Virus record (IMG/VR): IMGVR_UViG_2537561716_000020
DNA: 4,181 bases
Source: a virus
Taxonomy: Duplodnaviria; Heunggongvirae; Uroviricota; Caudoviricetes
Direction: 5' to 3' (one strand)
How positions within the stretch are numbered: the stretch's first letter is position 1; the number at the start of each line of letters is the position of its first letter. The notes below the pieces were generated by a model. That model had not been told where the DNA came from. It saw only the letters and a list, made by a program, of their open reading frames with translations, and searched no databases. The position numbers and the translations under genes were made by a program. Positions 2,782-3,831 of this stretch are shown piece after piece.

Positions 2782-2812
2782 GGATATATAGTGATGAGGG
2801 TTATGTTTTCTG

Positions 2813-2822
2813 TGTTTATAAT
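2813..2822 (+). promoter_or_regulatory. Candidate -10 element (TGttTATAAT) 36 nt downstream of the Q stop
   Basis: Perfect TATAAT at 2817-2822 with TG at 2813-2814. No convincing -35 at 16-19 bp (best is ATGAGG/GATGAG near 2793-2799). Could be the late promoter or the cargo gene's own promoter; unverified. Confidence 0.25.
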
Positions 2823-2932
2823 TAACATGTTTATTTTTTGATGGTCATGTATTGTGGAAGGTAGATAAAATGTTGCCTGGTGAATTGAAAATATTGATAA
2901 TCAATCTTCATCATTAAATAAAAGGAGTGCTT

Positions 2933-3751
2933 ATGTGGATTGTGTTAGTACTGTCACTGTCAACTCTCAGTTGGCATAAGGTAGTGGCTTTTTCATTGTT
3001 GACGGTGTCTGTTGTCCTGGCTGTGCTTAATGATATTATTGATTGGTCGGTGTTATTTTTTGTTGCTACAATCGTTTTTTTTATTATTTTGAAGTTCAAC
3101 TGGAAATATAACGCCTGGGCTAAATCTATATATGAAGTTGGCATAGTTTTATCAGCCATAGCATTATTTTTCCATCTATGGCCAGGGTTTCACAATCCTG
3201 TAGTGCTAAATTCTGTTACTGTTGGCCCTCAAAGTACTCCCTATACAATGTATTTTAATTTTGATAAAGCGCTGGTGCCATTTTTGTTAGTCCTGTGTAC
3301 ATCTTCTTTGTTTAAAAAAGAAGTAAAATCAGAAGTGTCTTTGTGGAAGTGGGGGGCTCTGTCGCTCTCTGTTCCTCTTATCCTGTTTTTGGCTGTTTTT
3401 TTTGGTGGATTAAAGCCAGAGATTCATTTTCCTGAGTGGTTGCCAGAGTTTATATTGGCTAATTTGTTTTTTGTGTCTCTGGCAGAGGAATCATTATTTA
3501 GAGGGTATATTCAATCACGGCTATCAGAAGTAACGTCTCCATTGGTTGCATTAATTGTGGCGGCTTTGTTGTTTGGTTTTTATCACTATTCAGGTGGTGC
3601 TTTACTTGTATTATTTGCCACGTTATCTGGTGTTGTGTATGGATTGTCATGGATGTGGAGTGGGCGTTTGTGGGTTGCCACCCTTTTCCATTTTGGTTTG
3701 AATCTGTGTCACTTGTTATTCTTTACCTATCCATTTTTAAAACATAATTGA
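2933..3751 (+). CDS. CPBP-family (CAAX protease / bacteriocin-processing, Pfam Abi-type) intramembrane metalloprotease, 272 aa, polytopic membrane protein
   Basis: AAGGAG (2922-2927) plus 5 nt then ATG at 2933; the ORF track starts at the in-frame GTG 2927. The translation is hydrophobic throughout with several predicted TM helices and carries the three CPBP motifs in canonical order: EExxxR (EESLFRGY, Glu codons 3485-3490), FxxxH (FGFYHY, His codon 3584-3586), HxxxN (HFGLN, His 3689-3691, Asn 3701-3703). Confidence 0.85.
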   Translation: MWIVLVLSLSTLSWHKVVAFSLLTVSVVLAVLNDIIDWSVLFFVATIVFFIILKFNWKYNAWAKSIYEVGIVLSAIALFFHLWPGFHNPVVLNSVTVGPQSTPYTMYFNFDKALVPFLLVLCTSSLFKKEVKSEVSLWKWGALSLSVPLILFLAVFFGGLKPEIHFPEWLPEFILANLFFVSLAEESLFRGYIQSRLSEVTSPLVALIVAALLFGFYHYSGGALLVLFATLSGVVYGLSWMWSGRLWVATLFHFGLNLCHLLFFTYPFLKHN

Positions 3752-3831
3752 TTTTTTCTATGGTTTTAAATTTATAAGACTGAAAAATAGCAGGACGTGA
3801 CATTTGCATGAAAAATATGCACGGCAAAGCA

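Follow-up and report, generated by a model that had tools for sequence, protein, structure and literature searches.

In the 4,181-nucleotide (nt) stretch of IMG/VR virus record IMGVR_UViG_2537561716_000020, here referred to as the window, positions 2782–3831 (~1.05 kb) very probably represent a moron-type accessory cassette which lies between the gene for a Q21/QuuD-type antiterminator, Q, and its cognate late promoter, PR′, and which carries one gene for an intact membrane protease of the CPBP family. That degree of assurance applies to the anatomy, namely the cassette in the gap and the intact protease; the explanation as a whole, with transcription and function included, is considered the best available and reasonably probable. 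Q itself (2410–2781, + strand; PF06530, E = 9e-52; RefSeq ECs_1084) is the left anchor of the module. The cargo is the CPBP/Rce1-like intramembrane glutamic endopeptidase gene at 2933–3751 on the + strand, encoding 272 amino acids (ECs_1085, WP_000265265.1; PF02517). The window was found to match lambdoid prophages of Escherichia coli, with at least 80% of it covered in 569 complete genomes, and is identified by its sequence as the hokD-DUF968-RusA-Q-CPBP region of an Sp4/CP-933M-like prophage of Shiga toxin-producing E. coli (STEC).

The ST131 prophage L003 has the same hokD-DUF968-RusA backbone, and its homology to the window was found to stop at 2390 and to restart at 3891. Between the equivalents of these two positions, L003 has a Q of the lambda type and, no more than 80 nt after it, a textbook PR′ (TTGATT-17-TAAATT), then an AACGAT pause element and a terminator, with no cargo. 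As L003 differs over 2390–3891 as a unit, it would appear that Q, cargo and PR′ have been swapped as one module. Phages with the same Q family show homology through Q to ~2740 and again from ~3826–3832. The Q proteins found beside other cargo types are 78–87% identical to that of the window at the amino acid level by tblastn (79–82% in a five-sequence alignment).

A set of 128 Q-containing sequences, comprising loci mainly from IMG/VR (some contigs being present twice) and the window, was scanned for a conserved PR′ cassette motif of ~85 nt, which was found 3′ of Q in 121 of them with any cargo. The gap between Q and PR′ was 486–1657 nt in length and longer in three loci, two of which (L005 and L106) have an annotated or evident transposase. 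Five classes of cargo were found in this gap. The commonest among the retrieved loci was an NmpC/Lc-type porin gene on the opposite strand (~1640 nt), with the others being the CPBP gene (gap of 1015–1055 nt), an ORF6N-domain gene (779–1061 nt, e.g., in L004), a gene for a small secreted His-rich protein (486–497 nt) and, in phage PhiR40_1, a reverse-strand lipoprotein gene (596 nt). Among the loci scanned, no member of the same Q family had an empty gap, the minimum being 486 nt. The first-pass annotation of this DNA had proposed a single-gene, compositionally distinct and exchangeable cargo directly after Q, and this is supported by the five cargo classes and by the cargo-free L003: on comparison of related prophages, the site holds no cargo in L003 and an ORF6N, porin, secreted protein or lipoprotein gene elsewhere. 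As is expected of a moron, the cassette lies between conserved backbone elements, is replaced or absent in relatives and, at 35.9% GC compared to ~51%, differs in composition from its flanks, with Q sharing part of the bias.

The island was detected in 572 of 5426 complete E. coli genomes, and Q at an identity of at least 90% was likewise detected in 572. Q at 80–90% identity was present in 33 further E. coli genomes, and the two of these that were examined both have ORF6N instead of CPBP. Conservation of the CPBP gene in the backbone of all relatives, which the first-pass annotation had named as a finding that would count against it, was not observed, yet the gene appears to be fixed with this particular Q allele (572 versus 572 genomes). 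It should also be noted that in the ORF6N-type relatives (L004, 4397–4520) a strong promoter-like TTGACC-18-TATATT and a terminator are located right after the Q stop and before ORF6N, with the conserved PR′ cassette located only after ORF6N. A homology search for a PR′ right after Q found no counterpart of this promoter and terminator in the window. The distal spacer of the cargo cassette (3752–3831, + strand) is free of terminators, and similarity across cargo types begins only at ~3826–3832. An inverted repeat, TGCAT-N7-ATGCA, is present at 3805–3821 between the CPBP stop and PR′; it is kept in CPBP lineages of 83–97% identity and not in L010.

By homology and position, the late promoter PR′ of this Q family was assigned to 3832–3859 on the + strand, with a −35 region of TTTACG, a 16-nt spacer and a −10 region of TATGCT (3854–3859), the latter keeping TAnnnT in every PR′ variant. 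The −35 region sits in a perfect 14-bp palindrome, TTTACGTACGTAAA (3832–3845). In other cargo lineages the palindrome is TTTACGATCGTAAA, which is also perfect, a double change in the centre having left the dyad symmetry in place. The symmetry being kept through a double change suggests that the palindrome at 3832–3845 is a candidate binding site for a dimeric protein, either as a Q-binding element or for another regulator. Next to the −10 region, a near-invariant initially transcribed block, GTTAAGAGTGGTTA, was found at 3860–3873 (+ strand), and, going by the general Q cassette model (bioRxiv 10.1101/651190), this presumably includes a pause or Q-loading signal. It is followed by the intrinsic terminator tR′, CCCGCCTCTGAGCGGG with a T6 tract (3893–3914, + strand), which is the sole terminator 3′ of the CPBP gene. 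This terminator is conserved, its stem still being complementary in L010 and L011 despite substitutions on both arms, and backbone homology with prophages of other Q types restarts at 3891–3895.

Homologs of the PR′/tR′ cassette were found at 5014 places in 3707 of the 5426 complete E. coli genomes. In prophage DLP12 of K-12 the homologous cassette lies between nmpC and essD, ~120 nt 5′ of the latter, which is the holin gene, and the position of PR′ in the window is that of the lambda-type PR′-tR′ in L003. In the published Q21-family model, the order after the Q gene is PR′, pause element, terminator and late genes, with PF06530 being the Q21/Q933W family (bioRxiv 10.1101/651190). The nearest solved structure to the window Q was that of Q21 (E = 1e-7), and the DLP12 lysis operon has been reported to be under the control of a Q-type antiterminator (PMC7918800). 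It is for these reasons that 3832–3914 is read, by homology and position, as the probable PR′/tR′. Should PR′ be constitutive, like its counterparts in other lambdoid phages, a leader RNA of ~50 nt (3866–3914) ending at tR′ would be expected in lysogens. It would be comparable to lambda 6S RNA or, in Stx phages, to the small RNA StxS (PMC7547250). Neither the island nor the PR′ leader was matched by any Rfam family, and a literature search for the PR′ sequence string returned chance matches only.

In Stx phages, the stx genes are located 3′ of PR′ and tR′ and depend on Q antitermination. In the window, PR′ and tR′ are both located 3′ of the CPBP gene. Since the gene is 5′ of PR′, it would be in the nmpC slot rather than that of stx, where it could not be driven from PR′ by Q. 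The first-pass annotation had offered stx as the positional analogue, and this is to be replaced with the nmpC slot of DLP12, given the position of the CPBP gene 5′ of PR′/tR′ (3832–3914). With the nmpC and lc porin genes (of DLP12 and PA-2, respectively), the window shares the Q family (~78% nucleotide and ~84% amino acid identity), the slot between the Q stop and a homologous PR′/tR′ cassette, and an AT-rich (39–41% GC) single-gene cargo encoding an envelope protein. It differs in that the porin gene is on the opposite strand as a classic self-contained, lysogen-expressed unit, whereas the CPBP gene runs in the same direction as Q, with no terminator ahead of it, and relies on tR′; in addition, the porin is an outer-membrane protein and the CPBP product an inner-membrane protease. 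With the stx phages 933W and Sp5, it shares accessory cargo between Q and the lysis genes in lambdoid prophages of the same STEC hosts, as well as the surrounding late region (tRNAs ileZ-argN-argO, a nanS-p esterase gene and a holin gene). The difference is that stx comes after PR′/tR′ and is Q-controlled (see also PMC7547250), whereas the CPBP cargo comes before PR′; a CPBP homolog that is more distant, from a phage whose Q is lambda-type, does hold a stx-like position.

Judging from its motifs, all of the catalytic ones being present, the cargo product is an intact intramembrane glutamic protease of the CPBP/Rce1-like type. It was matched by the PF02517 profile over residues 171–260 with 70.6 bits (cutoff 22.4). 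In an alignment of the window protein with 36 homologs of 47–84% identity over their full length, residues E185, E186, R190, F214, H218 and H253 were invariant and N257 was conserved in at least 90% of the 37 sequences; these residues make up the three CPBP catalytic motifs EExxxR, FxxxH and HxxxN. An AlphaFold2 model built on the homolog alignment (predicted local distance difference test score 92.5, predicted template modelling score 0.90) was all-helical and polytopic with ~10 membrane helices. The top two Foldseek hits to this model in the PDB were Rce1 (4CAD, probability 0.96) and SpdC (6U0O, probability 1.00), with E-values of only 0.03–0.05 and, for the match to SpdC, a template modelling score of 0.49–0.53. 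The CPBP profile match and the intact catalytic motifs uphold the earlier proposal that the cargo encodes a membrane protease, and the helical model is compatible with it. A strong Shine-Dalgarno sequence, AAGGAG, was read at 2922–2927 (+ strand), 5 nt 5′ of the ATG.

The protein shares PF02517 and the motifs with the CPBP family, which includes Rce1, SpdC/LyrA and MroQ of Staphylococcus aureus, the Abi immunity proteins and the myxosortases. It may also share their polytopic helical fold, as Rce1 and SpdC were the only meaningful matches to its model in the PDB, at modest E-values. It is only 14–19% identical to the solved members, and its N-terminal half has conserved motifs of its own (PGFHN and MYxNFDKALxPF) with no counterpart in the Pfam model. 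Unlike the known CPBP systems, the window CPBP gene has no conserved partner gene. A search of solved structures by sequence gave no match for the CPBP protein, and the viral structure library BFVD gave only uncharacterised proteins or giant-virus CAAX proteases. The PHROGs families that it matched are of unknown function, and no PADLOC-DB defence-system model matched it at E ≤ 0.1. A myxosortase and an ABC-permease/CPBP fusion were rejected, with the NCBIfam equivalog models all falling far below their cutoffs.

Linkage of the CPBP gene to Q was found to be widespread. Q (PF06530) is immediately 5′ of the gene in 40 of 40 IMG/VR loci with a CPBP protein 62–100% identical to that of the window, at a distance of ~146–158 nt, or more where the CPBP match is partial. 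In two loci whose early regions are otherwise different, one from E. coli (CPBP identity of 62%) and one from Shigella flexneri (59%), Q also precedes the CPBP gene. Among the E. coli matches listed, the carriers of the Q-CPBP module were mostly STEC, enterohaemorrhagic E. coli or related strains (O157:H7, O55:H7, O145, O111, O26 and O103). In two further loci (L135 and L136; L135 4742–6270), a CPBP gene of 55% identity is present after a lambda-type Q (PF03589). It is located there 3′ of PR′ (TTGATT-17-TATGCT, with a pause-like AATCGT after it) and of tR′, directly before the holin gene, i.e., in a stx-like position.

With regard to expression, a terminator scan detected none between Q and the CPBP gene, nor between the CPBP gene and PR′, so the first terminator downstream is tR′. 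The AT-rich spacer between Q and the CPBP gene (2782–2932, + strand) contains a candidate sigma-70 promoter, TTGCCT-17-GATAAT, at 2873–2901 (+ strand), which was identified by a consensus scan. Its −35 region, 17-nt spacing and −10 region are kept in CPBP variants of 83–96% identity as TTGCCA or TTGTCA, then GATAAT, and the more distant L010 and L012 have their own near-consensus TTGACA…TATAAT or TTGCAT…TATAAA at a similar distance. The CPBP cassette therefore has a conserved sigma-70-like element and no terminator of its own. Two routes of transcription are plausible from this layout, the case for them being about evenly balanced. The gene would be transcribed in the lysogen from its own promoter (~2873–2901), probably damped by H-NS; damping is plausible because of the GC content of 28–36%, and H-NS is known to bind low-GC horizontally acquired DNA in O157 Sakai (PMC4764244). 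It would also be transcribed at induction by read-through of the delayed-early Q message, as no terminator lies between the two genes. Both transcripts would end at tR′ unless the polymerase were antiterminated, and Q acting at PR′ would not drive the gene.

It is possible, and suggested here tentatively, that the product is a catalytically active inner-membrane protease which cleaves or sequesters a membrane or envelope protein, with a protective and still speculative benefit such as phage exclusion or immunity to a membrane toxin. A protective role would fit a gene that is dispensable for the phage, stands alone and shares its slot with envelope-modifying cargo (porin and lipoprotein). Other CPBP proteins act as immunity factors. 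A number of points weigh against this account of expression and function. Promoter-like matches numbered 9 compared to 5.7 ± 2.4 in shuffled sequences, which is no enrichment, and the conservation behind the promoter call is that of fairly close relatives. The supplementary files of one chromatin immunoprecipitation paper on H-NS in Sakai had no entry for ECs1083–1086, and a literature search found no mention of ECs1085. Furthermore, the CPBP gene invariably points the same way as Q and the lysis genes, it is not separated from Q by a terminator, and its position between Q and lysis genes recurs with two unrelated Q families, the L135/L136 copy being 3′ of PR′-tR′ and adjoining the holin gene. 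Such a layout suits a part in the lytic cycle no less than lysogenic conversion.

These last points favour the main rival explanation, a function in the lytic cycle (lysis timing, or superinfection exclusion at induction) with delayed-early or late expression, as does the opposite orientation of nmpC and of the lipoprotein gene of PhiR40_1, the classic occupants of the slot that are expressed in lysogens. Such a function is nonetheless considered somewhat unlikely. The gene is dispensable, with siblings whose Q is 78–87% identical carrying unrelated genes and with PhiR40_1, which was deposited as a complete phage genome, being without it. No homolog at the DNA or protein level was found among 50,697 deposited phage genomes, the homologs in many Enterobacterales are stand-alone chromosomal genes with no phage context, and the promoter-like element of the gene is conserved.

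A rather improbable alternative is that the product is an Abi-type immunity protein guarding the lysogen against a bacteriocin or against a membrane-targeting toxin, either contact-dependent or of a type VI secretion system. It belongs to the same Pfam family, PF02517, with the catalytic motifs intact, and Kjos et al. (2010) are reported to have found that Abi-type immunity requires the CPBP motifs. Prophages typically carry immunity genes that stand alone, and some of the homologs carry the source annotation "CAAX amino terminal protease self-immunity", which is annotation only. In contrast to Abi-type immunity systems, no bacteriocin or toxin gene is found beside the CPBP gene, and this holds in every phage and chromosomal context examined. 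The literature search also gave no Enterobacterales study showing such a role, and nothing useful was found in literature on O157 prophage CAAX proteases or on CPBP proteins in prophage superinfection.

As for the composition of the island, the AT-rich block is genuine and highly significant. Positions 2782–3790 have a GC content of 35.6%, with T making up 41.6% of the + strand, compared to 50.6% GC for 1–2781 (χ2 = 66.8, p = 3e-16) and 47.3% GC for 3791–4181 (p = 7e-5). Synonymous codons ending in A or T make up 68% of those in the CPBP gene and 47% in the DUF968, RusA and orf92 genes (p = 3e-8), and GC content at third codon positions (GC3) is 0.35 in the CPBP gene and 0.52–0.53 in the left-flank genes. 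Both GC content and codon usage are therefore distinct from those of the flanks, in keeping with the first-pass annotation. The boundaries are a different matter. A maximum-likelihood model with two change points placed these at ~2460, inside Q, and at ~3875, just before the terminator, with the ~1.4 kb between them being ~36% GC, which is far lower than the average of the host. Over its last 320 nt (2460–2781), Q has a GC content of 38.8%, which differs from the left flank (p = 9e-6) and not from the island (p = 0.32). The AT-rich ~1 kb with a T-rich coding strand stands, therefore, and its abrupt onset at the Q stop at 2781 does not, with the shift beginning inside Q at ~2460. Likewise, the rise in GC that had been placed after ~3790 occurs only at the terminator at 3893. 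The earlier interval of 2782–3790 is thus only approximate with regard to composition, yet it is close to the homology (mosaic) boundaries of the cargo, which lie at ~2740–2781 on the left and ~3826–3831 on the right.

An explanation in which the low GC does not signal foreign origin, but arises either from encoding a hydrophobic protein or from the Q-PR′ control region itself, is very unlikely. A protein with much Leu, Phe, Val and Ile would be expected to have a T-rich coding sequence, as here (41.7% T), Q is AT-rich as well (42% GC over the whole gene, GC3 of 0.36) with a change point inside it, and the GC content of Q co-varies with that of the cargo. Against this, the GC3 of the CPBP gene is 0.35, and a bias beyond that of membrane-protein amino acid usage is indicated because the non-coding spacer between Q and the CPBP gene (2782–2926) is 27.6% GC and chromosomal homologs of the same fold are 43–54% GC, with a GC3 of up to 0.64. 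In addition, the slot is 49% GC when filled with ORF6N, and the cassette is swapped as a unit in relatives. The explanation is largely refuted by the GC content of the chromosomal homologs and of the ORF6N-filled slot. It was also observed that both GC and GC3 of the Q gene track the GC of the cargo, with a GC content of 40–43% beside CPBP, 43% beside the porin gene and 47–48% beside ORF6N, and this despite the Q proteins being 78–87% identical (window Q and loci L004, L099 and L071). The Q alleles beside the CPBP gene are the most AT-rich of those compared.

To place the phage copies in relation to chromosomal ones, a neighbour-joining tree was constructed, in which the phage copies grouped in one clade that also includes the chromosomal copy P0010. 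The chromosomal homologs of Enterobacterales are 48–54% identical to the window protein, are mostly 271–276 amino acids in length and have the motifs along the whole protein. They are single genes without partners, found at different loci depending on the genus, with a GC content that follows the host (43–54%), whereas the phage copies are always adjacent to Q and all have a GC content of 36–41%, even where synonymous sites are saturated (synonymous substitutions per site, dS, of 1.4–2.1). In Hafnia (L007–L009) and Providencia (L013–L014), a homolog of ~50% identity is located directly 3′ of modF (modABC-acrZ-modE-modF-CPBP). In E. coli K-12, modF is directly followed by galE. Other chromosomal sites were between dcuC-like and codB-like transporter genes, beside dapD and, in Enterobacter, beside an EAL-domain gene. 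Because copies that have diverged to 55–62% identity remain AT-rich and adjacent to Q, a recent import retaining donor composition is argued against, and the phage CPBP copies appear to be an old lineage with maintained AT-richness and tight linkage to the Q gene. The recent one-off import implied by the first-pass annotation does not agree with copies at 55–62% identity and dS > 1 that are still beside Q and still 36–41% GC.

It is conceivable, if unlikely, that this phage-propagated CPBP clade, which has long stayed after Q and ahead of the lysis genes in lambdoid phages of two unrelated Q families, under purifying selection and with lasting AT-richness, represents a previously unrecognised phage-encoded envelope-editing factor, the gene being enriched in the prophage pools of STEC and enterohaemorrhagic E. 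coli. Such a factor could be a superinfection-exclusion or anti-toxin protease which cuts a protein of the inner membrane on which phage DNA entry or toxin action depends, or it could be a regulator of holin-mediated lysis.

That the CPBP gene is instead a decaying, non-functional remnant in a defective prophage, as might be supposed from insertion sequence elements, a frameshifted TrmB-like open reading frame (ORF), lysozyme and terminase nearby in the O157:H7 prophage and from a few IMG/VR copies that match CPBP only partially (L049, L054 and L055), is highly improbable in view of the ORF being intact at an identity of at least 99% in 547 E. coli genomes, the invariant catalytic residues, the confident structure model and a ratio of nonsynonymous to synonymous substitution rates (dN/dS) of 0.12–0.25 between the window copy and phage-borne copies of 97% to 55% identity, with dS reaching ~2. 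The dN/dS values indicate purifying selection and suggest that the CPBP gene is functional. A pseudogene was rejected on the basis of dN/dS and the invariant catalytic residues.

The window corresponds to ECs_1082 to ECs_1086 of strain Sakai. Prophage Sp4 (CP-933M type) of O157:H7 matches positions 2094–4181 with 100% identity and is ~10% divergent over 686–2093. The breakpoint at 2094 in this comparison indicates recombination inside rusA, so the block from the 3′ part of rusA through Q and CPBP to PR′ has moved between backbones. Upstream of Q, the window encodes the toxin gene hokD (4–159), two small ORFs, a DUF968/HNH protein (987–2036) and RusA (2049–2420). The Cys/His-rich C-terminal part of the DUF968 protein was matched by the HNHc_6 nuclease model below threshold (22.8 bits, cutoff 26.6). 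Just 3′ of hokD, at 168–249 on the + strand, there was a sub-threshold Rfam match (24.9 bits, gathering score 50, E = 0.019) to isrK, a small RNA of Salmonella prophages. Downstream of tR′, the start of a small TrmB-like ORF (4038–4181, + strand; RefSeq annotation) marks the resumption of the shared late-region backbone outside the cargo, and this region is present in 1979 of the 5426 E. coli genomes, far above the carriage of the island. Further 3′ in Sakai are an AraC-like helix-turn-helix gene, the tRNAs ileZ-argN-argO, a nanS-p-type esterase gene and a holin gene.

The reading of this region as cargo after Q was essentially right, with its boundaries, the stx analogy and the implied recency corrected here, and the arrangement itself is ordinary, the gene already being annotated in RefSeq and the slot already being known from nmpC of DLP12. 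For the QuuD/Q21-type late-control module, which is very common, it means that a slot dedicated to cargo lies between Q and PR′; this slot was never empty in the loci sampled, and at least five genes alternate in it. Cargo in this gap escapes the control of Q, unlike stx, and such placement bears on predictions of whether a prophage accessory gene is active in lysogens or is turned on only at induction. For the CPBP gene, this concerns ~10% of complete E. coli genomes, mostly of the major STEC serogroups.

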